From contig JAMPAO010000005.1 in the NCBI GenBank assembly GCA_023667165.1, positions 19 to 64,018 of the forward strand: 64,000 bases of DNA. Reading direction: 5' to 3'. Shown here piece by piece: positions 1 through 13,223 of the stretch. A program made the translations under genes and the position numbers. Source of the stretch: Ruminococcus sp. (GTDB lineage: Bacteria; Bacillota; Clostridia; Oscillospirales; Ruminococcaceae). Numbering within the stretch: the stretch's first letter is position 1; every line of letters begins with the position of its first letter. The notes under the pieces were generated by a model. It saw only the letters and a list, made by a program, of their open reading frames with translations, made no database searches and was not told the DNA's origin.

Positions 1-1490
1 GTCAGTTTTACGGAATTGAGATTAACGATTTTGCGGTTACGGTTGCAAAAACGGCATTATGGATAGCGGAAAGTCAAATGCTTCACGAAACAGAGGAAAT
101 AATGAACGTTAAGTTAGATTTTCTGCCGCTTAAAAGCTATGCGAATATTGCGGAGGGCAACGCTTTGCGGGTGAACTGGGAAGATGTTGTGTCCAAAAAT
201 CAGCTTAATTATATTATGGGAAATCCGCCATTTGTAGGTGCAACAATGATGACGGCTGAACAGAAAAAAGAGGCAGTTAATATTTTTGGTAAAATAAAAT
301 TATCGAACAGCATAGACTATGTTGGCGCGTGGTATTTTAAAACTTGTGAAATAATGTTAGGAACAGATATTAAGGCAGCTCTTGTATCCACAAATAGTAT
401 AACGCAAGGTGAACAAGTTGCGCCCTTATGGCAAACATTGTTTCAAAAATACAATTTGCATATTAATTTTGCTTATAAAACCTTTCGCTGGGACAGCGAG
501 GCAAGTTTAAAAGCACACGTCCATTGTGTTATTATAGGTTTCAGTATTATTGAGGATAAGAAAAACAAAGTTATTTATGAAAATGACAAATTAAAAACCG
601 CAAAAAATATAAATGCGTACTTAATGGACGCTCCAAACATTTTTATACCAAGCAGGAGTAAACCATTATGTAATGTTAGTCCAATGATTTTGGGCAATAA
701 ACCGGCAGACGGAGGAAATTTTATCATATCAGAGGAGGAAAAAAACCAGATACTAAAAAGAGAACCTCAATTAGAAAAATTTATACGTCCTTATATCGGA
801 GCAGTGGAATTTATAAATAGAAAGACAAGATTTTGTTTTTGGCTTACCGATGTTACCCCCGCTGAAATAAGTAAAAGCAAGGAATTACATAAAAGACTTG
901 AAAATGTAAGAGAAATGCGTTTGAATAGTACAGCTTTGCCTACAAGGGAGAAAGCTAACACACCTAACTTGTTTTTCTTTATTTCACAACCCGAAACAGA
1001 TTACATAATTGTCCCGAGTACATCATCTGAAAGAAGAAAATATATTCCAATGGGTTTTTTACACCCTAATGTTATAGCAAGCAATTCAGTATCAATTATA
1101 CCCAATGGAACGCTATATCAGTTTGGTATTCTTACATCTAACGTACATATGGCTTGGACGAGAACCGTCGCGGGAAGATTAAAAAGTGATTACAGATACA
1201 CGGGGAGTATTGTCTACAACAATTTTCCGTGGTGTACGCCAACGGACGAGCAAAAAGCCAAAATTGAGCAGACCGCGCAGGCGATACTTGACGCAAGGGA
1301 AAAATATCCAGAATGTTCCCTCGCGGATTTGTATGACGAGCTTACTATGCCGAAGGAGCTTAGAAAGGCTCACCAGAACAACGACAGGGCGGTTATGCAG
1401 GCTTACGGGTTTGATGTGAAAGCTATGACGGAGAGCGAGTGTGTGGGGGAGCTTATGAAGATGTATAGGAAAATGACGGGAGGGAAATAA
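1..1490 (+). CDS. MmeI-like (type IIL/IIG family) N6-adenine DNA methyltransferase, C-terminal ~495 aa; 5' end lies beyond the left window edge
   Basis: The frame of track ORF 78..1490 stays open back to nt 3 (QFYGIEINDFAVTVAKTALWIAESQ). Catalytic motif IV GNPPFVG is at nt 219-239. A long downstream TRD-like region includes YRYTGSIVYNNFPW, as I recall for MmeI-family enzymes. Confidence 0.7.
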   Translation, partial: QFYGIEINDFAVTVAKTALWIAESQMLHETEEIMNVKLDFLPLKSYANIAEGNALRVNWEDVVSKNQLNYIMGNPPFVGATMMTAEQKKEAVNIFGKIKLSNSIDYVGAWYFKTCEIMLGTDIKAALVSTNSITQGEQVAPLWQTLFQKYNLHINFAYKTFRWDSEASLKAHVHCVIIGFSIIEDKKNKVIYENDKLKTAKNINAYLMDAPNIFIPSRSKPLCNVSPMILGNKPADGGNFIISEEEKNQILKREPQLEKFIRPYIGAVEFINRKTRFCFWLTDVTPAEISKSKELHKRLENVREMRLNSTALPTREKANTPNLFFFISQPETDYIIVPSTSSERRKYIPMGFLHPNVIASNSVSIIPNGTLYQFGILTSNVHMAWTRTVAGRLKSDYRYTGSIVYNNFPWCTPTDEQKAKIEQTAQAILDAREKYPECSLADLYDELTMPKELRKAHQNNDRAVMQAYGFDVKAMTESECVGELMKMYRKMTGGK

Positions 1491-2017: not shown

Positions 2018-2548
2018 GTGATGATATACTTAAACGACGGGCATATTATTATCAGAGATCTCGAGGAACGGGATATTGACGGAATAGTAAAAGCGGAGCT
2101 TGAGCAGGGCTGGAGCAGCGACCCCGCAAAGTTCATCATGCGGCTCGAACACAAAAAAGAGGGGAAAGCCATACCCCTTGCCGCAGAGTATGAGGGCAGT
2201 ATCGCCGGCTATGTCAGCGTATATCCCGCCTGTGAATGGGGCGCATTCGGCGGAAAGGGACTTCCCGAAATAGTGGATCTTGCCGTAACGGAGGGATACC
2301 GCCGCAAAGGGATCGGAGGCAGGCTTCTTGACGCTGCGGAAATGATATCGGCTCGGTACGCCGATACGGTCTATCTGGGCGTGGGACTTCACAGCGGCTA
2401 CGGCAGCGCCCAGAGGCTGTACGTGAAACGGGGATATATCCCCGACGGGTCGGGGGTATGGTATCTCGACCGCGTGTGCGGACAGTACGAAAACTGCCGC
2501 AACGACGACGATCTGGTGCTTTATATGTCGAAAAGACTGAGGAGTTGA
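2018..2548 (+). CDS. GNAT family N-acetyltransferase
   Basis: 176 aa. Acetyl-CoA binding motif RRKGIGGRLLDAAE (R/QxxGxG/A). GGAG RBS at 2008-2011. The start could be GTG 2018 or ATG 2021. Confidence 0.8.
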   Translation: MMIYLNDGHIIIRDLEERDIDGIVKAELEQGWSSDPAKFIMRLEHKKEGKAIPLAAEYEGSIAGYVSVYPACEWGAFGGKGLPEIVDLAVTEGYRRKGIGGRLLDAAEMISARYADTVYLGVGLHSGYGSAQRLYVKRGYIPDGSGVWYLDRVCGQYENCRNDDDLVLYMSKRLRS

Positions 2549-2554
2549 ATATAT

Positions 2555-2734
2555 ATGCTTCCAAACGACCCTGTAATGCTTATGAGCGTTATAAACACAA
2601 AGCTGCGGGACTTTTATCCCGACATCGAGGCTCTTTGCGGGGATATGGATATTTCCGCGGCGGAGCTGACGGAAAAGCTGGAGGCGGCAGGCTTCGTCTA
2701 CGACCGGGAACAAAACCGCTTCAAGGCGCGCTGA
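2555..2734 (+). CDS. DUF4250-like small protein (59 aa), not in the supplied ORF track
   Basis: ATG 2555 to TGA 2732-2734. Translation: MLPNDPVMLMSVINTKLRDFYPDIEALCGDMDISAAELTEKLEAAGFVYDREQNRFKAR. It matches my memory of the DUF4250 consensus (PxDPxMLLSxxNTxLRD...EL) and starts 7 nt after the GNAT stop. Confidence 0.65.
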   Translation: MLPNDPVMLMSVINTKLRDFYPDIEALCGDMDISAAELTEKLEAAGFVYDREQNRFKAR

Positions 2735-2780: not shown

Positions 2781-3494
2781 ATGAACCCCGAAAAAATGTA
2801 CGATATATTTACGGAGGCTCTTTGCGACGATACCGTAAAAGCCGAGCTTATCCGAAAAATAACCGAAAAGGCGGGGCGCGACCGTATAGAGGGTCAGACG
2901 GAACTGTTCCCGCAGAACGACGCGTCCGCTCTGACGGCGGAAAACGCGGAGCTGTCAAGGCAGATAGCTTTGCTGGAGCTGGAGCTGGGCAGGCTTTCCG
3001 GAGAAAACAAGGATCTGACCCAAAAGGTGCGGCAGGGCAGAGATTCCCTTAACTTTTACACCGTCAGCTACGGCGCGCAGATAGCGTTGTATGAAAAATA
3101 CAAGACCCTTTCTCAGCCTGTGATGAAGATCATGAAGCAGATATTCAAAAACGACAGCTTAAACGGCATATTCCTGTGCGGCGTTCAGATCGATAATCTG
3201 AAAAGCCTGCGGGATTACACCGAGCAGCTCATAAAAAACGGTCCGGAGGGCAGAGAAAAGGATATAGCCGTTCTGAACGAGCTGTATGTATATCTTCTTT
3301 CCTGCTATAACTCAACCTATTCCAAGCCCGTATACAGGCTCACGGACGCAAGGGCGGGGGACAGCTTCAGCGAAGAGCTGCATTACAATACGGGTACCGC
3401 CAGAAGCGGAAGCGTTTCCCGCGTGCTTATGCAGGGCTGCGCCGCGGCGGGCAGCGGAAGGATCATCAGAAAAGCGATAGTCGAGCTTTTTTGA
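2781..3494 (+). CDS. GrpE-like protein (N-terminal helical/coiled-coil region, GrpE-like C-terminal beta domain)
   Basis: 237 aa. Heptad-like helix AENAELSRQIALLELELGRLSGENKDLTQKV. The C-terminus AGDSFSEELHYNTGTARSGSVSRVLMQGCAAAGSGRIIRKAIVEL (nt ~3354-3491) resembles the GrpE signature FDPxxHxA...G.V..v.qkGY..gR.iRpA.V.V. It lies directly upstream of an Hsp70-fold ATPase. Confidence 0.55.
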   Translation: MNPEKMYDIFTEALCDDTVKAELIRKITEKAGRDRIEGQTELFPQNDASALTAENAELSRQIALLELELGRLSGENKDLTQKVRQGRDSLNFYTVSYGAQIALYEKYKTLSQPVMKIMKQIFKNDSLNGIFLCGVQIDNLKSLRDYTEQLIKNGPEGREKDIAVLNELYVYLLSCYNSTYSKPVYRLTDARAGDSFSEELHYNTGTARSGSVSRVLMQGCAAAGSGRIIRKAIVELF

Positions 3495-3565
3495 GAAGTC
3501 TGTCACTATACGAAATATTACTCTTGAATAACATAAACAATACAAAAAGAAAGGCGTGTTAGACG

Positions 3566-6430
3566 GTGGATACAAAAAGGATCAACCTGATACCAACGGA
3601 AAAGGAGTACATCACCAATTCGGTCATAAACAGGATACCTCAAACGGCGGCTTTACAGATAAAGCAGTTCGAACCGCTTATAAGAAAAATACTGGAGCTT
3701 ATGAAAAGCACATGGGTGAAAATGGGCAATAAGCAGGTGTGGTTCAACACCGCCGTAAGCGGGATATTTCCCGATCTCGACAGCTTCGAGCCGTCGAAGC
3801 AGAATGTTTTTTTCTCTTTTGTGGAGGGCAAGTTCAACCGCAGCTTCGAGGGCTTCGAGGGAACGCTTATGTCTTTGCCCGAGCTTAGGGCGTCGGAAGT
3901 CTGCAAGCTTGAAAAATTCCGGAAAAGCTTTTTCGCTTACAAGGAAGGCGGCACGGTAAAGGCCGTGGATATGACGGGCAACGTTACCTACAGCTTCAAT
4001 ACCGCCAATCACCATGAGGCGGTGTGCATACCCTCTCTGCGCTTTACAAGGAAAAACGGTCTGCCCTTGGGAGGAGAGGAGGCAATACTTATTTTTGCGG
4101 ACAATGAGCTTATCCCCGAAGCTCTGAGCGAGAGCGACAAAAACAGCTTTTCCGATCTCATCGCCCTGCGTAAGGCCGACGGCAATTATATAAGCCTTTC
4201 CTCCGAGGGACGGATCGTTTTTGACGCGGCTAAAATATCGGGGGACATTACGTCGGGAAAATGGGGCGGAAGCATAAACGGCTATGATTTTTCCATGGAC
4301 AGGCTTATGGAGGTCACGCGCATAAAGGCGGACATGGACTTTACCGACGCTTTGAAAATGAGCCTGCTGGGCTGCGAAAAGCGCAGGGCGGACATCGATC
4401 CCTACGACTCGAAGCTCCTGAGCGATCCCAACAGGGGGCACTGGGATCTGTGGAGCAGCGGAAACGCCGAGCCGCCTTACGCTATCGAGATAGCCGAGCC
4501 TCTCATTGCCAGAAACCCCGTTAAGGATATCAACCGCGACGGCGTTATAGCCATAGATTTCGGCACGAAAAGCACCGTGGTGGTTTTCCAGAAGTCAAGC
4601 GAGCATACGCTGCCCATGGCTATCGGCACGGGAAAGCTGTCCGACGCGGACAAGGCGGAGCATTACGAAAATCCCACGGTAATGGAATTTACCGATATGA
4701 ACAGTTTCCTCTCCAGGTACCGCGCAAGAGGCGGCAGACCGGAAACGCTGTGGGAAACTCTGCCTATCTCTCACACAGCCTATTCGGATATGAAAAACGC
4801 CGCCAGCAAGGATTATTATTCCTTTTTCTGCGACCTAAAGCAATGGGCGGGGGAGGGCAATTATCCTTTGCGCATATGCGACAGGAACGGCGGCGAATAC
4901 CTGCTGCCGCCCTATATGAGCGACGATCCCGCAGAGTTCGACCCTATAGAGATATACGCGTATTATATCGGACTGTACATCAACAATATGCGCAGCGGTA
5001 TATATCTCGACTATTATCTGTCGTTCCCCGTGACCTTTGAAAAGACCGTCAGGGAAAGGATAGCGTCCAGCTTTGAGCGGGGACTTCTCAAATCTCTTCC
5101 CTATTCCGTCCTTGCAAGCCAGGATATTCTGGCTGATTTCCGCGTGGACGGCTCGGTAAGCGAGCCGGAGGCATACGCGGTGTGCGCTATGGAGCAGTAC
5201 GGGGTATATCCCGAGGACAGCGCCGAATTTCATTACGGCATATTCGATTTCGGCGGCGGTACTACGGACTTTGATTTCGGCGTGTGCCAGGTATCCAAAA
5301 AAAGGAAGTTCGATTATACCATAACTAATTACGGCGCGGGGGGCGACAGATACTTAGGAGGAGAAAATCTCCTTGCAAAGATGGCGGTGACGGTTTTCAG
5401 AGGAAATTACGCAAAGATCGCGGAAAACAACATCACCTTTACTCTGCCTGCGGGGTGCAGCGAATTTGCGGGTGCGACGGCGGTAGTTGCCCGTTCAAGA
5501 GAGGCGGAGGCCAATATGCGCCATATGATGGAGCGTCTGCGCCCCCTGTGGGAGGATACGGAGGAAAACAGGGACGAGCTGGAGCGCGGCATAATATGCG
5601 TGGATCTGTTTGACAAAAACGGCGAGCTGATACCGAGGTTCGAGCTTGAGGTATCCGAGGACGAGCTGATCCGGATAATCAGGGACAGCATTTCTTCGGG
5701 CATTGACAATTTCTTTGCGTCCATGAGCCTTGCCTATTCCTCGGCGGGAGCGTCCGTTCCCGACAGGATAAACATAATGCTGGCGGGCAATTCGTGCAGA
5801 AGCAGGCTCGTTCCGGAGCTGTTCCGCGAAAAATTCGAGCAGGGCAAGGAAAAGCTGAAAAAAGCGTTAAACAGCGACAGCGACATTGAATTTGTCCTCT
5901 ATCCTCCTTTGGGAACGGAAGAGGCGTACGAGATCATGGAAAAGCGGGGAACGGATCCTCACAGGGGAAGCCTTGAGCACCCCACGGGAAAAACGGGAGT
6001 TGCGTTCGGACTTATCAAGTGCAGAAAGGGCGGCGTTATCGAGCGCAAGGCAATGAGCGCAAAGGAGGACGAGATACCTTTCAAGTATTTTATCGGCAGC
6101 AACAAGAGGGGCTGCTTTACGGTGCTTGACGGCGACGGCGCGCCCATGACGGTATCGGGAAAACCCGACTACAACATCTGGTACAACTTCACCGACGCCG
6201 ACGAGGATACTTTCGAGGTATATTATACTCCCCTGCCGGAGGCGGTATCGAATAAGATCCCCATAAGCGGCGTTATGAAGAAAAAATGCCGTCTTAACAT
6301 TGTTTATGAAAAAGCAAGCGTTTATATACGCGCCACGGGTCCCAAGACACTGCAATATGTGGCGGCAACGGAAAACGGCATAAATTTCGATACGTATCTG
6401 AGCAAGATCGTTACGGTGGATCTGGAATGA
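3566..6430 (+). CDS. atypical Hsp70/ASKHA-fold ATPase, 954 aa, with large N- and C-terminal extensions
   Basis: GVIAIDFGTKSTVV (nt 4541-4582, phosphate-1), GIFDFGGGTTDFDFG (nt 5237-5281, phosphate-2) and IMLAGNSCRSRLV (nt 5774-5812, adenosine motif) occur in Hsp70 order. A ~325-aa N-terminal region and a ~200-aa beta-rich C-terminus have no motif I recognise. GTG start. Confidence 0.65.
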   Translation: MDTKRINLIPTEKEYITNSVINRIPQTAALQIKQFEPLIRKILELMKSTWVKMGNKQVWFNTAVSGIFPDLDSFEPSKQNVFFSFVEGKFNRSFEGFEGTLMSLPELRASEVCKLEKFRKSFFAYKEGGTVKAVDMTGNVTYSFNTANHHEAVCIPSLRFTRKNGLPLGGEEAILIFADNELIPEALSESDKNSFSDLIALRKADGNYISLSSEGRIVFDAAKISGDITSGKWGGSINGYDFSMDRLMEVTRIKADMDFTDALKMSLLGCEKRRADIDPYDSKLLSDPNRGHWDLWSSGNAEPPYAIEIAEPLIARNPVKDINRDGVIAIDFGTKSTVVVFQKSSEHTLPMAIGTGKLSDADKAEHYENPTVMEFTDMNSFLSRYRARGGRPETLWETLPISHTAYSDMKNAASKDYYSFFCDLKQWAGEGNYPLRICDRNGGEYLLPPYMSDDPAEFDPIEIYAYYIGLYINNMRSGIYLDYYLSFPVTFEKTVRERIASSFERGLLKSLPYSVLASQDILADFRVDGSVSEPEAYAVCAMEQYGVYPEDSAEFHYGIFDFGGGTTDFDFGVCQVSKKRKFDYTITNYGAGGDRYLGGENLLAKMAVTVFRGNYAKIAENNITFTLPAGCSEFAGATAVVARSREAEANMRHMMERLRPLWEDTEENRDELERGIICVDLFDKNGELIPRFELEVSEDELIRIIRDSISSGIDNFFASMSLAYSSAGASVPDRINIMLAGNSCRSRLVPELFREKFEQGKEKLKKALNSDSDIEFVLYPPLGTEEAYEIMEKRGTDPHRGSLEHPTGKTGVAFGLIKCRKGGVIERKAMSAKEDEIPFKYFIGSNKRGCFTVLDGDGAPMTVSGKPDYNIWYNFTDADEDTFEVYYTPLPEAVSNKIPISGVMKKKCRLNIVYEKASVYIRATGPKTLQYVAATENGINFDTYLSKIVTVDLE

Positions 6431-6671: not shown

Positions 6672-6701
6672 TTGACAAGGCAGGGGGATTTGTGGTATAA
6701 T
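6672..6701 (+). promoter_or_regulatory. strong sigma-A promoter candidate at the head of the glycopolymer cluster
   Basis: TTGACA (6672-6677), 18-nt spacer, TGgTATAAT (TATAAT 6696-6701), in an AT-rich 360-nt intergenic region. Confidence 0.6.
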
Positions 6702-6794: not shown

Positions 6795-7721
6795 ATGGTC
6801 GATATTCTGATGGCGGTTTACAATGGGGAAAGGTTTTTGAGGGAGCAGATAGAATCGGTCGTTTCTCAGAGCTATACGGAATGGCGGCTGTTTATTTGCG
6901 ACGACGGGTCGTCGGACGGGTCGGCGGATATTGCGGAGGAGTACGCGGAAAGATATCCCGGGAAGATATTTGCGGCTGTAAACGGTGTGCCTGCGAGGTC
7001 TGCATGCGGTAATTTTATGGGAATGCTGAGAAAAAGTTCGGCGGAATATGTGATGTTCTGCGATCAGGATGATGTGTGGCATGAGGATAAAATTGCGGTG
7101 ACTTTGGATAAAATGCGCGAGATTGAGGAAGGAAACCCGAAGAAACCCGTGCTGATACACACCGATCTGGAGATAGTCGACAGGGAGCTTAATGTTACGG
7201 CGGGGTCGTTTATGAGATATCAAGGACTTAAAGCCCGGTACAAAAGCCTTAACCGGCTGCTTTGCCAGAATAATATCACGGGGTGCACGGTGATGGTGAA
7301 CAGGGCGCTGGCGGATATTGTGAAAGACGCTCCTGCCGAATATATGCTCATGCATGACTGGTGGGCGGGCCTGGCGGCGGCGGCTTTCGGAGAAATAGGG
7401 TTCGTGGACCGCGCCACGGTCAAGTACCGGCAGCATGGAGGAAATCAGCTTGGGGCGGTGAATAACAGGAGTTTGGCGGGGATTTTCAGGCTGATAAGCG
7501 ACAAGAGGCGGTCTAAGCGGCGGCTTGAGGTCACTTATGAGCAGGGGAAAAGATTTTACGAATACTACGGAGAGCGGCTCGAAGCCGACGCGAGGCGCGT
7601 TCTTGAAATATATGCCGATATACCCTCTCACTGCAAGGCGATAAGGGCGGCAAGGCTTATAAGGTACGGCTTTTTGAAACAGAATTTTTTGGCGGCGGCG
7701 GGGGAGCTGGTGTTTTGCTGA
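6795..7721 (+). CDS. GT2 rhamnosyltransferase (RgpB/GacC/WbbL-like)
   Basis: 308 aa. VDILMAVYNGERFLREQIESVVSQSYTEWRLFICDDGSSDGS ... FCDQDDVWHEDKI closely resembles streptococcal RgpB-type rhamnosyltransferases as I remember them. It sits with rfbBCD. Confidence 0.75.
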   Translation: MVDILMAVYNGERFLREQIESVVSQSYTEWRLFICDDGSSDGSADIAEEYAERYPGKIFAAVNGVPARSACGNFMGMLRKSSAEYVMFCDQDDVWHEDKIAVTLDKMREIEEGNPKKPVLIHTDLEIVDRELNVTAGSFMRYQGLKARYKSLNRLLCQNNITGCTVMVNRALADIVKDAPAEYMLMHDWWAGLAAAAFGEIGFVDRATVKYRQHGGNQLGAVNNRSLAGIFRLISDKRRSKRRLEVTYEQGKRFYEYYGERLEADARRVLEIYADIPSHCKAIRAARLIRYGFLKQNFLAAAGELVFC

Positions 7722-7877: not shown

Positions 7878-8760
7878 ATGAATGCTTTTAAGAAAGCGAC
7901 AATTGAAATATCAAGCGGTTGCAATGCAAAATGCACATGGTGTACAACGGGAAAGAAAAATCGCAGCGGGTGCAGTGACAAGACGGAATTTATGTCTGCT
8001 GAGTCCTTTGAAAAAGGTCTTTTTTATATGATGGAAAAGGGGATAATTGACAAAAATACAGAGATCGAGCTGTATAACTGGGGAGAACCCTTTTTGAATC
8101 CGGAGATAAATACAATCTGCGGTATAATAACAAAATATGGATTTCAATATCATTTATCTACCAATGCGTCTGTTTACAGAGAAATAAATGCGGAATATTT
8201 AACAAATCTATCCGGCTTCAGAGTATCATTGTCGGGATTTTCAAAAGAAAGCTATTCTATTACCCATTCATTGAATTTTACAAAGGTAATGGATAATATT
8301 GTAAAATTTTGTGATATGCTTAAAGCTGCCAATAAGCAGAATGTAATGGATATTACTTTTTTGGTATATAAATTTAATTGTCATGAAATCAATAAGGCAA
8401 AAGATCATTTCAATAATTTGGGAATAAAATTTACTCCCCGTTTGGCATACTACAATGATTTTGAACAGTTTCAGGCTTTTTTGAACAAATCTATGCCTGA
8501 TGAAATGAAAAAAATGTCGGAAGAACAGATCTTTGAGGACCTTTTAAGCCAAAGAGCGTCAGAGGCGCCGGCGCATTTTCGCTGCCCTCAGGATGATTTT
8601 ATTGTATTGTCCTATGACTGGAAAATAGTGCCCTGCTGCCGATTGACAGAAAATGAAACTTTAGGCAATTTATTTGATATGGATTTGGATCAGATCAAGG
8701 AGAAAAAAAATCAGATTGCCCAGTGTGCTGAATGCAAGCAGTCGAACCAGCATTATATTG
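7878..8760 (+). other. radical SAM + SPASM/twitch-like domain of the megaprotein
   Basis: CX3CX2C at nt 7920-7943, a GGEP-like motif (WGEPFLNP), and C-terminal cysteines FRCPQ...VPCCRL...QCAECKQ (nt ~8578-8740). Confidence 0.7.
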
Positions 8761-11700
8761 TACATTCACCGACTGTATTTACTTATTCCATAGATCCTAA
8801 GAATTCGAAGGACAAGCAGATTAAGGTAGTTGCCAAGCTGTATCCGGACTATAACGGAGAAGGATATTCGGAGGATACGGCTGTTGCTTTTGGAAATTAT
8901 GACGCTGACAGTGAAAGCTTTTACGGTGAACATACTTTTGAAAATGCTCCGGAAAGGATACGTTTTGATCCTGTAGGCGGATCGTTTTGTGTTGCGGAGA
9001 ATGTAAGGGTTTCGACAGAAAAAGGAAAGGCAGATATAACTTGTCACAATGGAATAAAGTATGGGGATTTTTATGTTTTTGATCATTTTGATTCCCAGCT
9101 TATATTTGAAAATAAAAATAAATCGCGTAAATTCCGTATTAAAGCGGATATTTATCCTTTTAACAGCTTGTCTGCAATTGCTTTTATGGATAAGGTAACG
9201 GCGGATAACAAGGATCTGCTTGAAAATAACAGGAAGCTGGAAAGCGAAAAGGCAGGACTTATGTCCGACAAGAAGAGGCTGGAGGGAGAAAAAGCAGGAC
9301 TTATGTCCGACAAGAAGAGGCTGGAGGGAGAAAAAGCAGGACTTATGTCCGACAAGAAGAGGCTGGAGAGCAAGGTTTTCGAGCTTAACTGCGTCATTGG
9401 GTCTAATACAAAGAAATATAATGATTTCAAATATGAAAGCGCAAAGAAAAATGAACAGTTGGAGAAAGAGATCGAAAATAAGAACAGGGAAATTGAAAAT
9501 AAGATCAAAGAGCTTGAAAGCGCAAATGCGGTTATTCGCAGCGACAGGGAAACTGCCCGCAGTATTCTTTCGGCAGGCAGCCGGACAGGCGGCAGGTATG
9601 CCGCTGCGTGTGCGCTGAAGCGCGGCTTTTTTGCTGCAAGAACAAATGCTGCCGCTATAAAAATCATAAGGAAAAACGGCGGCTTTGATGTGCTTTATTA
9701 TTGCAGAAAATACGGTGATATTGCCGAAAGCGGCATGGATCCGCTGCTCCATTATATATGGTATGGGGGATATGAGGGAAGAAATCCCTCCGAAAGCTTT
9801 GATTCCGCAAAATATCTTGCTGCTTATGAGGATGTGAAAAAAAGCGGGGTCAATCCCTTTGCGCATTATGTTGTTTTTGGGAAGGATGAGGGAAGGAAGG
9901 CAATAGGGGTAAATCTGCCGAAAAAAAATACTGCGGTAAGGCCGGAGAAAAATGTTAAACCCATAGAAAAAAGCAAGACGGTTAATTCTCCGAAGACACT
10001 GAAAAACAATGAATCTTCTGTAGCTATAAATGATCATCAATCGGAATTCAGCTACAGAGAGTTTGGCTATACTTTTTTTTCAAAAAGACTAAAGGCACTG
10101 AAAGAAAAAGTAATCACGATCATTGTTCCGGTGTACAATGCATATGAGGAAACGGCTGAGTGCATAGAATATGTGCTTAAAAATACTGATTTTCCTTACA
10201 GGCTTATGCTTATCAACGATTGCAGCACCGATGAAAGGATAAGTCCGTTACTTGATAAATATAAACAAAACGAGAATGTGACTGTCATTGAAAATGAAGA
10301 AAATTTCGGTTTTGTAAGAACGGTAAATTACGGGATAACTCACAGTGAAAATGATGTGGTATTCCTTAACAGTGATACCAAGGTCACCAAGGGCTGGCTG
10401 CGAAAACTTGCCGTGGCTGCGTATCATAAAGGCAATATTGCAACGGTAACGCCTTTTTCCAACGCTGCAGGAGCGTTCAGTGTACCTGTTATGGGTGAAA
10501 ATAAAGATATACCCGCAGAATTTGATCTTGAAACAATGTCCAGCGTTACAGAGCGCTGCTCAAAGCTTGACTATGTTGACGTGCCTACAGGTAATGGATT
10601 TTGTATGTATGTAACAAGGAAAGCTATTGATTCGGTAGGTATTCTTGATTATGAGGCGTTTTCGAGAGGATACGGCGAGGAAAATGATTTCTGCATGAGA
10701 GCTAAAAATGCCGGATTTATAAATATCATTGCCGATGATACGTATATCTATCACAAAAGAAGCGCTTCATTCAAAGATGAAAAACAGAAGCTTATTACAG
10801 AAAACAGAAAGATACTGGATGCAAGATATCCCGAATACAGCAGTGAGATAACTAAATTTTCTGTGTCCCCGGAGCTTATTGCAAACAGAAACCGGATAAA
10901 GGATATTGTTGATAATAAGCAGTCAGCTCCTTTTTTAAGAAAGAGGCTGCTGTATGTTTTGCATGAGGGTACCGGAGGAACCGTGAAAACCAATGAGGAT
11001 CTTATGCATTTTGCGGAGAAGAATAATTATGAAGTTTTCATGCTTACTTCAAATACAAGTCAAATGAAGCTTTATTCGGAGTCAGACGGCAGTTTAAATC
11101 TTCTTCATACATGGAAGTTGGAAACAAAATGGGATATATCAAATTTTTATGTTCCCGAATATGCGGACATTTATTTCGATGTTCTCTGTAATTTGCACAT
11201 AGAGCTTGTTCATATCAGACATCTTTTTAAGCATAGCTTTGATATTGTGGACATTGCCGATGTACTGCGCATACCGGTCATACTGTCTTTTCATGATTTT
11301 TATTTTATTTGCCCCAGTATAAATTTAGTGAACAGTGACAAAAAATATTGCAATGCTGAGTGCAGAGAGTGCGATGAAAAATGCGTTACTCCGTCGGTTT
11401 ACGTTAAGGTGCGGTATCCTTTGAATGAATGGACCAAAGAAATCTGGAGAGCAGAGCTTTCAAAATTATATACAAAGATCAAAGCGTTTGTTACTACTTC
11501 CGAATATACGAAGAAAACATATTTAAAGATCTATCCGGAGCTTTCGGACAGATTTTATGTTATTGAACACGGAAGAAACTTTGATTATGACAGACATTAC
11601 AGAGGTGGGATCCCGAGTGAGGATAAGATCGTCATTCTTCTGCCGGGAAATATAAATATGAATAAGGGCGGCGATTATATTAACAAGCTTATCGATATTG

Positions 11701-13223
11701 ATAAGGAAAAAAAGCTGGAGTTTCACTGTATGGGGGCATTGTCAACAGAGTTGCCCAAGGAGTTCAAGGATAAGATCATATATCACGGGAAGTATGTTAG
11801 GGAGGATTTCGTGCGGTTGGTGAATGAGATAGCTCCCGCTTATATCGGTATTTTTTCCATATGGCCTGAAACCTATTGTCATGTGCTTACAGAAGCGTGG
11901 AGCTGCGGAGTTCCTTGTATTGTATCTGACATAGGTACACTTAAGGAGCGTGCAGACGCTCAAGGGGGATGCATTAAAGCCGATCTTGACGATGTGGAAA
12001 AAACATACAAGGAAATCATAGATATTTCCTTTTCGGAGAAGTATTTTGAATTATGTGAACAGGTTCAAAAGGCTGATATTCATTCAATAGAACGAATGGG
12101 AACAGAGTATCTTGCATTGTATGATAAAATAATTAATAAATGTTTTTTAAATGATATCGAAAGGGGCACAATGATATGGGTAAATAACTATATCAGAACA
12201 GGAGAATATCACGGTTCATCGTATATTCGTGTAGTATCGCCTATTATGAATAATCCGGTAATTCGGCGAAATTTAACGGTTGCTGAAGCTCGCCATGCTT
12301 CGGATATTCCGTTTGAAAGCGAGGTAGTATCATATATAATTGTTCTTGTTCAGAGGGAAAAGATTGATAATGATTCTGTTTTACTTCTCCAAGAAAAGGT
12401 AAAAGAATATCCAAGTCTTAAAATCATTTTTGAAATAGATGATAATCTGATAAGTATTAATGAGAATCATCCCCATTATTCCATGTATGAAAATAATATT
12501 AATAAGATAAGGAGTATCTCAAAAATAGCTTCTAAGATTATTACTACCAGTGAAGTGATCTCAAAAGGGTTAAATACTTCCGTAGCGGTAATACCTAACT
12601 ATATAGACAACAGGCTATGGAACATAACGGATAAAAATACAGTTTTTTCAAAAAAGAAATTTGTGAAAATTCTTTATTTTGGCACATCGTCTCACTGTCG
12701 TGATTTGGCAATATTGAAAGAGCCTATCGAAATGCTTAACAATAGATTGAAAAATGAAGACATAAGAGCGGTTCTTGTTGTTGTCGGATGTTCAAATGAA
12801 CAAGAAGATTGGTTCGATGTTCTTAAAGTGCCGAATGATTCAAAGACATATCCCGAATTTGTAAAGTGGTTGAAAGAGGTGAATGATTTTGATATCGGTG
12901 TTGCCCCCTTGGATCTTTCAATAGATTTAAATTATGCTAAAAGTCCGCTTAAATATTTTGAATATGCCGCTCTTGGGTTGCCGTGCGTTTGTACGGCTAT
13001 AAAGCCGTATAATGAGGCGGTGATTAACGGTCAAACGGGATTTCTTATAAAAGACAATGCGGCTGACGAATGGGCGGATGCTATATATCAGCTTGTTATG
13101 AGTGCAGAGCTTAGAGAAAAAATAGTTTCAAATGCCAAATCGGATATTGAAAAAAATCATATGCTTTCCGATCATTACAGCGAAATAGCAGATATATTTT
13201 TAAACATGGAGGAAAAATCATGA
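7878..13223 (+). CDS. 1781-aa multidomain protein: radical SAM/SPASM domain + beta-rich region + helical tandem-repeat/coiled-coil linker + HYxxxGxxEGR repeats + GT2 + two GT-B (GT4/GT1-like) domains
   Basis: A single uninterrupted ORF. CX3CX2C (CNAKCTWC, nt 7920-7943), GEPFLNPE, and a Cys-rich SPASM-like tail (CPQDD..PCCRL..CAECK). GT2: [31 protein letters not shown] 1: [26 protein letters not shown] 2: [26 protein letters not shown]. Confidence 0.8.
9204..9570 (+). other. charged helical / coiled-coil-like linker of the megaprotein
   Basis: [14 protein letters not shown]...(3x14-aa repeat)...[42 protein letters not shown]. Leu/Ile recur at 7-residue spacing. Confidence 0.55.
9237..9370 (+). 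repeat. in-frame 42-bp tandem repeat, 3 full units plus a partial fourth
   Basis: Units at 9237-9278, 9279-9320 and 9321-9362, then a partial copy CTGGAGAG. Units 2 and 3 are identical; unit 1 differs only in its first ~15 nt. Encodes ([14 protein letters not shown])x3. Confidence 0.95.
10110..10800 (+). other. GT2 (GT-A fold) domain of the megaprotein
   Basis: [47 protein letters not shown] (DxD-like), [10 protein letters not shown]. Confidence 0.75.
10940..12140 (+). other. first GT-B (GT4-like) domain of the megaprotein
   Basis: [21 protein letters not shown], the E-x7-E-like region [27 protein letters not shown], and the Cys-rich insert [25 protein letters not shown]. Confidence 0.6.
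12171..13220 (+). other. second GT-B (GT1/GT4-like) domain of the megaprotein
   Basis: [64 protein letters not shown]. Confidence 0.55.

Follow-up and report, generated by a model that had tools for sequence, protein, structure and literature searches.

In a 64,000-nt stretch of a Ruminococcus sp. genome (contig JAMPAO010000005.1; this whole stretch is called the window below), we found two adjacent genes that encode a true but very divergent GrpE homolog, here named A, and a highly divergent Hsp70-family ATPase, here named B. They form the conserved centre of an accessory gene system that is widespread in Bacillota and occurs in other bacteria too, and A and B very probably act as a dedicated GrpE-like/Hsp70-like pair, in which A, by analogy with GrpE, is the predicted dedicated nucleotide-exchange factor (NEF) of B. 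The explanation that best accounts for the data as a whole, to which we give a probability of about 0.55, is that a divergent Hsp70 and its own GrpE-type NEF would serve a conflict system, anti-phage or other, as a sensor or clamp that cycles between ATP and ADP. Both open reading frames (ORFs), their coordinates and the 71-nt gap between them are exactly as called in a first-pass annotation made from the DNA letters (Table 1). An AGAAAGG-type ribosome-binding site lies ~11 nt 5’ of the GTG start codon of B, and the N-terminus that follows, MDTK, is conserved among homologs. That annotation had treated the interval 2781-6430 as a two-gene unit; the A-B pair is real, but a conserved DUF4250 gene just upstream had been missed, as had the wide distribution of the family and its larger operon forms.

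A divergent GrpE homolog encoded next to a divergent Hsp70-family ATPase

The AlphaFold2 (AF2) model of A, with an overall predicted local distance difference test score (pLDDT) of 86, shows the topology of GrpE, i.e. a helix of 63 residues followed by a helical region, with a β-domain at the C-terminus. The long helix, in which heptad-like spacing had been noticed earlier, is indeed modeled as one continuous helix with coiled-coil matches, and in the model it resembles the dimer stalk of GrpE. A Foldseek search of the PDB with this model returned GrpE structures in all top 12 positions (from Thermus, Geobacillus, E. coli, M. tuberculosis and human mitochondria) with probabilities of up to 0.99, the rest of the matches reaching at most 0.06. 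The template-modeling (TM) scores of A against GrpE were low, 0.2-0.37, probably owing to the helix orientation in the monomer model. Sequence profiles lead to the same family. An hhalign comparison of 39 non-redundant A proteins gathered from related loci with 11 authentic GrpEs (E. coli GrpE and ten plasmid-borne or mis-filed chromosomal copies from several phyla) gave a probability of 95.5% and an E value of 1.6e-8 over 77 columns, which take in the last bundle helix (aa 159-178 of A) and all of the β-domain and span residues 113-193 of E. coli GrpE, while reversed and column-shuffled controls gave E values of 0.08-0.93. The β-domain signature that had been aligned by eye at the C-terminus of A is thus borne out, and the case in which profile searches would show no relationship to GrpE, considered in the first-pass annotation, is not what the alignment and the structural matches show. 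The diversity of the reference set matters here: against the single E. coli GrpE the A family gave a weak match with a probability of 14%, whereas with the 11 diverse GrpEs the match was decisive. Within the aligned region G226 and R227 of A fall on G182 and R183 of GrpE; the R183 column carries a conserved K/R, and R183 is a residue that we take to contact DnaK. Furthermore, the Pfam GrpE family (PF01025) was the commonest family match among the A proteins (14/39), although all these matches were sub-threshold, the best with an E value of 1.5e-4. Profile searches of the PDB with A alignments returned generic coiled-coil matches and no GrpE because the coiled coil dominates the profile, and the A protein of the window matched nothing among the curated families of Pfam, NCBIfam and PADLOC (noise only in PADLOC).

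B is an Hsp70-family protein by fold and by profile comparison. In Foldseek searches with the AF2 model of B (pLDDT 86; predicted TM score 0.71) the top 50 matches in the PDB were all Hsp70 or Hsp110, with E values of 1e-18 to 1e-20 against full-length DnaK, BiP, Ssb and Hsp110 (DnaK: 7.6e-20 over ~660 aligned columns), and the only strong matches among viral models (BFVD) were viral Hsp70 homologs, which took the top 32 positions. An hhalign comparison of the nucleotide-binding domain (NBD) with DnaK gave a probability of 97.5% and an E value of 6.8e-12. Single-sequence family searches found no PF00012 match at E<=1 and marginal matches to the NCBIfam DnaK/HscA models (E 0.03-0.07) around the phosphate-2 motif. 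The three Hsp70/ASKHA motifs reported earlier in canonical order are present and invariant in 48 homologs of B, where D331, G333, T334, K335, S336, T337, E533, P534, D561-D568, G741 and N742 do not vary. Given that the ATP-binding motifs are invariant in these homologs, B is expected to be catalytically active. Its assignment to an already characterised actin-like or cytoskeletal family, which the first-pass annotation had kept in view, was not seen: B folds as Hsp70 and has no model in Pfam, NCBIfam or PADLOC.

The NBD of B carries large insertions and is framed by two further domains, neither of which could be assigned at first; this holds for the N-terminal one, while the C-terminal one is probably related to a substrate-binding domain (SBD), as set out below. 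The N-terminal domain had been estimated at ~325 aa; the Hsp70-like region in fact starts at about aa 305, after a 30-residue segment that joins the N-terminal domain to the NBD and in which L268, R274, Y280, D287, G291, H292, W293, L295 and W296 are invariant or nearly so. A reading of this segment as a PD-(D/E)xK nuclease motif was rejected, as the model has helices there and not the required β-strands. The N-terminal domain evolves fast: it is 19% identical to distant homologs, where the NBD reaches 50% and the C-terminal domain 42%. No relative of it was found in Pfam (per-member scan), in PDB profile searches or, using the full-length model, in BFVD. An exhaustive profile search of 1.84 billion representatives found it only at the N-terminus of B-family proteins, with shorter matches being contig-truncated fragments, and we propose that it is a specificity or recognition module. 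Two variants of this domain were encountered in the survey: a 563-aa fragment (P0154) carries two N-terminal domains in tandem in one polypeptide, and in one B variant it is interrupted by a biotin/lipoyl-attachment domain (PF00364, E 3.7e-8), the carrier probably being of the 1,061-aa Peribacillus type (e.g. L039:9554-10810).

The β-rich C-terminal domain is shorter than the ~200 aa first given, measuring ~130 aa. Judging from the model it is probably SBDβ-like: when the Foldseek targets contained an SBD, the alignments of B lengthened from ~525 to ~663 columns and the E values fell from 1e-15 to 1e-19/1e-20. The model has no α-helical lid, and the chain ends at aa 954.

A conserved cassette in a patchily distributed gene system

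We retrieved 78 loci, 68 of which had enough upstream sequence. A lies directly 5’ of B in 62 of these 68, with a median gap of ~21 nt, so that the pair, whose conservation as neighbours had been put in question, is kept together in Bacillota, Gamma-, Zeta- and Epsilonproteobacteria, Fusobacteriota and others, even where the remaining genes of the operon are rearranged. In a metagenomic protein of 1,367 aa (P0194) the two are naturally fused as B-A, with a full B at aa 3-990 and an A-family domain at aa 1170-1365 (hhalign probability 98.8%, E 5.7e-17). The order B then A also occurs as separate genes in one locus (L063).

The B family comprises more than 4,000 homolog clusters, with relatives in at least 536 GTDB species-representative genomes. 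Most of the encoding genomes belong to Bacillota; others are Zetaproteobacteria, Fusobacteriota, Treponema and metagenome-assembled genomes of Cloacimonadota. Plasmids of Acinetobacter and Helicobacter also carry B; a search of 72,556 plasmids gave only two matches, and no B homolog was found in the phage genomes searched. The system is patchily distributed, and what lies beside it changes from locus to locus while the cassette itself stays constant.

In the clade of the window, i.e. Huintestinicola and related Oscillospiraceae, this cassette has three genes. A DUF4250 homolog lies directly 5’ of A in 18/18 Huintestinicola-clade loci with upstream sequence, while the genes beyond it differ from locus to locus, and given this constant position we concluded that the unit of inheritance in the clade is DUF4250-A-B. 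For DUF4250 we found no solved relative in the PDB, no informative match in Pfam, NCBIfam or PADLOC beyond DUF4250 itself, and no literature. The ratio of nonsynonymous to synonymous substitution rates (dN/dS) in unsaturated pairs of the same clade was 0.03-0.11 for A and 0.02-0.08 for B; such low values for both genes indicate strong purifying selection and, as far as sequence evolution can tell, a minimal form that is functional and not decaying. Mirror-tree analysis of A and B gave r = 0.86 overall and 0.18 among distant pairs, which is uninformative beyond co-inheritance.

Elsewhere the pair takes part in several larger arrangements (Table 1). In the five-gene form, A and B are followed by C, D and E. 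C, an ATPase of the HerA/FtsK superfamily, is extended at its N-terminus by ~500 aa; it matches the anti-phage HerA and MADS mad8 models of PADLOC below their curated cut-offs, as a domain-level relative only, and of 22 members 16 have no transmembrane helix and the others one marginal segment. The N-terminal ~80 residues of D are glycine-rich, hydrophobic and glycine-zipper-like in 18/20 members (e.g. L026:15928-16647), a composition that suggests a membrane-active effector. E is a small protein, and neither D nor E had an informative match in Pfam, NCBIfam, PADLOC or the PDB. In Ureibacillus xyleni (L085:1424-7150) and three further loci (L072, L038 and L079) the A-B operon contains a second Hsp70; in loci of the U. 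xyleni type a near-canonical HSP70 (PF00012, E 3e-102) fused to VWA stands 5’ of A-B, together with a ~1,084-aa protein without matches and a DUF4280 (PAAR-like) protein. The Acinetobacter copy is on Acinetobacter piscicola plasmid pYH12207-1 (L101), where HEPN is followed by a dynamin fragment, and the Helicobacter plasmid copy (L102) has an HNH endonuclease. Apart from the family, a ‘hypothetical protein’ of the 46.6-kb Bacillus subtilis plasmid NZ_CP035192.1 (45168-45515) shows weak GrpE similarity (27.7% identity, E 7e-8) and may be another orphan GrpE-like gene.

Surroundings of the pair and comparison with known systems

The restriction-modification (R-M) type gene that had been noticed near the pair is an MmeI-type type IIG gene; its frame is open to base 3, i.e. 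it runs off the start of the window and is not truncated. A GNAT acetyltransferase gene ends 6 nt before the start of DUF4250 but is not conserved beside the cassette in relatives. The reported absence of hrcA and dnaJ was confirmed: neither of them, nor any J-domain, turned up in this region of the window or among the partner genes conserved with the pair, and A, B, C, D, E, DUF4250 and the window neighbours gave no J-domain match. Downstream, the region after B was inspected and showed no convincing terminator. A sigma-70 promoter of perfect consensus (TTGACA, 18 nt, TG-TATAAT; 12/12 matches) lies at 6672-6701 on the + strand, between B and a glycosyltransferase gene at 6795. Further on, a low-GC stretch (0.33-0.42) contains a giant ORF of 1,781 aa (7878-13223, +) with a 14-residue unit repeated three times in a coiled-coil region that is flanked by enzyme-like domains. 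This ORF belongs to a polysaccharide-type cluster with a GT2 gene and, at 13220, an apparent nucleotide-sugar dehydrogenase gene.

Table 1. Features of the A-B locus in the window, and arrangements of the pair in other genomes
Feature	Position in the window, or occurrence	Strand	Basis or remark
MmeI-type type IIG R-M gene, C-terminal part	1..1490	+	Pfam MmeI_Mtase/TRD/C; PADLOC REase_MTase_IIG E 1e-193
GNAT acetyltransferase gene	2018..2548	+	Pfam Acetyltransf_1 E 8.6e-11
DUF4250 gene	2555..2734	+	59 aa; Pfam PF14056 E 4.7e-26
Gene A, GrpE-like	2781..3494	+	ORF, ATG start, 237 aa
A, long continuous α-helix, aa 45-107	2913..3101	+	heptad/coiled-coil-like; AF2 pLDDT ~90-95; Pfam and PDB coiled-coil matches
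A, helical region, aa 112-178	3114..3314	+	counterpart of GrpE helical bundle; AF2 helices 112-121, 127-133, 137-152, 159-178
A, C-terminal β-domain, aa 185-236	3333..3488	+	AF2 strands; hhalign to E. coli GrpE 149-193
Gene B, Hsp70-type ATPase	3566..6430	+	ORF, GTG start, 954 aa
B, N-terminal domain, aa 1-262	3566..4351	+	fast-evolving, family-exclusive
B, pre-NBD segment LLxCxxxRADIxPYDxKxLxDPNRGHWDLW, aa 266-296	4361..4453	+	invariant or near-invariant columns
B, Hsp70-type NBD, aa ~305-820	4478..6025	+	large insertions; motifs, Foldseek, hhalign
B, phosphate-1 motif IDFGTKST, aa 330-337	4553-4576	+	
B, SEPEAYA motif with E533 (SEPxAYA, NEPTAAA-type)	within the NBD		aligned to DnaK E171
B, phosphate-2 motif FDFGGGTTD, aa 560-568	5243-5269	+	aligned to DnaK D194-D201 region
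B, adenosine motif LAGNS, aa 739-743	5780-5794	+	
B, C-terminal β-rich domain, aa 825-954	6038..6427	+	~130 aa; AF2 β-strands
A-B alone	at least 4 lineages		often flanked by opposite-strand genes
A-B-C-D-E, often then WYL-WCX regulator	many Bacillota		regulator in at least 5 loci
A-B (755 aa, without N-terminal domain)-B’ (987 aa)	a Lachnospiraceae group		
Hsp70-VWA fusion, ~1,080-aa protein and DUF4280, then A-B	Ureibacillus and related loci		
C-D…A-B-B’-HEPN	Acinetobacter plasmid		beside integrase and HipA modules
A-like-B…HNH-SMI1/KNR4-FtsK/SpoIIIE	Helicobacter plasmid		

Compared with DnaK-GrpE of the hrcA-grpE-dnaK-dnaJ operon, the pair has the same two folds, the same order of a grpE-like gene followed by an Hsp70-like gene, and the NBD motifs, and A retains the GrpE β-domain signature including the residue aligned to R183. 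It differs in that hrcA and DnaJ are missing and both proteins fall below every curated family threshold; B has an extra variable N-terminal domain of ~300 aa, large NBD insertions and no α-lid, and the distribution of the pair is patchy and accessory, with variable flanks. Hsp70 paralogs that serve a narrow task and are encoded with their own co-chaperone exist, namely HscA/HscB and HscC/DjlC. To our knowledge these use a J-protein as co-chaperone and need no NEF, whereas the private partner in A-B is a predicted NEF and there is no J-protein.

The first-pass annotation knew of no described system with this architecture. We found no paper and no Pfam, NCBIfam or PADLOC entry for the A-B family, within incomplete literature coverage; Hsp70-NEF modules have, however, been predicted before in conflict systems, from which A-B differs in architecture. 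In GAP1-N2 GTPase-centric conflict systems (Kaur, Burroughs, Iyer, Aravind 2020, eLife; PMC7159879), HSP70 and GrpE, so named without qualification, are encoded together in predicted operons that centre on the GAP1-N2 GTPase and on an FNIII-repeat protein carrying a DnaJ or TPR fusion. A second, lid-less/SBD-less Hsp70 is sometimes present in them (PMC7159879), which parallels the A-B-B’ loci described here. Unlike these systems, the A-B loci examined have neither a GTPase nor an FNIII-DnaJ/TPR protein, A and B are too divergent for Pfam, and the N-terminal domain of B is unique. CoCoNuT, a predicted defence system (Bell et al. 2024, eLife; PMC11090510), contains a divergent Hsp70-like NBD/SBD unit in CnuD/CnuCD, and some of its extended operons also encode glycine-zipper proteins and ATPases of the FtsK/HerA family. 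CnuD is coupled to an McrBC-type GTPase, has degenerate ATPase motifs and no GrpE partner (PMC11090510), whereas the catalytic motifs of B do not vary, and B comes with its own predicted NEF and is not in operon partnership with McrBC. Finally, C of the five-gene form is a HerA/FtsK-superfamily ATPase as in Sir2-HerA, DUF4297-HerA and MADS mad8; it differs from these in its ~500-aa N-terminal extension, in scoring below curated cut-offs and in having Hsp70/GrpE-like proteins and not Sir2 or nuclease effectors as partners, and it is absent from the window.

Proposed function and competing explanations

Defence-type genes are frequent neighbours of A-B across loci. They include McrBC with a macro-domain protein, a kinase-NB-ARC-TPR STAND protein, an SbcC-like ATPase with SNase, GajB/NERD-type helicases, DEDDh/PDC-S48 and PDC-M26, and in the window the MmeI-type R-M gene. 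The enrichment is suggestive and an antiphage function plausible; that the A-B system serves anti-phage or other conflict functions we put at somewhat under an even chance. Further signs of an accessory, conflict-like system are the patchy distribution with variable flanks, the WYL, HEPN and HNH genes linked to the pair in relatives, the kinship of C with anti-phage HerA and mad8, the glycine-rich hydrophobic N-terminus of D, and the N-terminal domain of B, which diverges much faster than the rest of the protein. Among the flanking proteins surveyed, three match PADLOC PDC-S68 with E values down to 6e-103, and at L072:12876-16777 the pair is immediately followed by two genes with matches to PDC-M26, a candidate system of PADLOC (M26A, E 1.6e-78; M26B, E 7e-11).

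What the data show are homology, architecture, linkage, selection and distribution; that A acts as NEF, what triggers B, what its client is and any role in defence are inferred. By analogy with the DnaK/GrpE cycle, B would bind ATP and hydrolyse it when a cognate ligand engages its N-terminal and/or C-terminal domain. Since nothing J-like is encoded, the ligand or the N-terminal domain of B would act in cis in place of a J-protein. The ADP state would lock B onto the ligand, and a dimer of A would dock on the NBD via its β-domain, open the cleft and so reset or time the cycle. In fuller operons this A-B switch might control the HerA/FtsK-type ATPase C and the glycine-rich membrane protein D, the likely effector, whereas the stand-alone form would act by itself, for example by sequestering a foreign protein, or via the N-terminal domain or DUF4250. 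A more specific proposal, toward which we are doubtful when its parts are taken jointly, makes the Hsp70/GrpE cycle the sensing and timing engine of a widespread, so far unrecognised anti-phage immune family. There, the variable N-terminal and SBD-like domains of B would capture a phage-derived protein without a J-protein, hydrolysis would lock the complex and the private GrpE would set the time of reset; in full versions the HerA-type ATPase and the glycine-zipper membrane effector would then be licensed, leading to abortive infection, while in the minimal DUF4250-A-B form capture alone would block phage development.

Several results weigh against reading A-B as a GrpE/Hsp70-based sensor or clamp in a conflict system. 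As to the proteins themselves, the A protein of the window has no PF01025 match at E<=1 and the gathering threshold was not reached; the C-terminal domain of B showed no similarity to the DnaK SBD in hhalign (E 0.63), structural alignment length alone giving the SBD-like call; and no J-domain activator was found in the system genes scanned, which makes the trigger of hydrolysis speculative. As to defence, the frequency of defence-type neighbours comes from a raw listing with no background rate for comparison, some A-B loci have metabolic neighbours only, and downstream of the pair in the window lies a polysaccharide-synthesis cluster. In PADLOC-DB v2, B, D and E had 0 matches and A noise only, no effector was recognisable in A or B of the window by Pfam, NCBIfam or PADLOC, and in the literature we found no experimental report on any family member, including on phage protection.

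A-B could instead be a specialised chaperone for an endogenous client, as HscA/HscB is for IscU or as HscC/DjlC; it would then serve the folding, holding or assembly of one host protein or complex, for instance under stress, and be unrelated to conflict. An Hsp70 fold with a private NEF is what a chaperone needs, both genes are under strong purifying selection, the GC content of the cassette (~0.50-0.53) matches that of the core genome (0.49-0.51 between 44 and 64 kb of the window), and the metabolic surroundings of some loci and the polysaccharide-synthesis genes of the window would be in place. Yet there is no conserved candidate client gene beside the pair, since the flanks vary; the distribution is patchy and not lineage-wide, there is no J-protein, the fast-evolving N-terminal domain of B is atypical for a housekeeping chaperone, and relatives are linked to HerA-type ATPases, WYL regulators, HEPN/HNH and a membrane protein, so that we regard an endogenous chaperone as unlikely. 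Chaperones also serve type III and type VII secretion, and by this analogy A-B could be the substrate chaperone of a mobile-element apparatus for protein or DNA translocation or for toxin delivery with C as motor and D as membrane part, the form in the window being reduced. C does resemble FtsK/HerA/VirB4/CedD translocases and the N-terminus of D is hydrophobic; a DUF4280 (PAAR-like) protein is encoded upstream in Ureibacillus, HNH and SMI1/KNR4 (toxin-immunity-like) as well as FtsK/SpoIIIE genes lie beside the Helicobacter plasmid copy, and plasmid copies stand next to an integrase. We nevertheless consider such an apparatus quite unlikely, given that most C proteins have no convincing transmembrane helix, that the pair is linked neither to WXG100/LXG substrates nor to relaxase or pilus genes, that B has only the two plasmid matches and no phage match reported above, and that A-B persists under purifying selection without C or D in at least four lineages.

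The absence of C, D and E from the window, and of any effector domain recognisable in A or B, could mean that the two-gene locus is a functionless, decaying remnant of the five-gene system. This is very improbable: both ORFs are intact and their catalytic motifs invariant, the same minimal architecture recurs in at least four unrelated lineages, and the dN/dS values of 0.02-0.11 across many pairs of the clade largely refute it. Hardly credible is the idea that B belongs with the actin-like ATPases of the cytoskeleton or of segregation (ParM/MreB/FtsA type) and is not an Hsp70, with A as a mere coiled-coil adaptor. The phosphate-1, phosphate-2 and adenosine motifs are indeed common to ASKHA-fold ATPases, and A has a long coiled coil, but an actin-like identity of B is contradicted by its top fold matches (50 in the PDB and 32 viral), all of which are Hsp70-family and none actin, and by the Hsp70-specific SEPxAxA/NEPTAAA motif; moreover A is GrpE-like in its β-domain, beyond the coiled coil.

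Hsp70 with GrpE is among the best understood molecular machines, and a private, diverged Hsp70/GrpE pair would show its chaperone ATPase cycle reused as a switch outside proteostasis. Having no entry in Pfam, NCBIfam or PADLOC, members of the family are annotated as ‘hypothetical protein’ or mis-named ‘DnaK’. If the anti-phage proposal is true, bacteria would have in this family their first immune sensor built on a chaperone cycle; either way, the outcome would be a class of immune sensor that is new in mechanism or else a dedicated chaperone system of a new kind.

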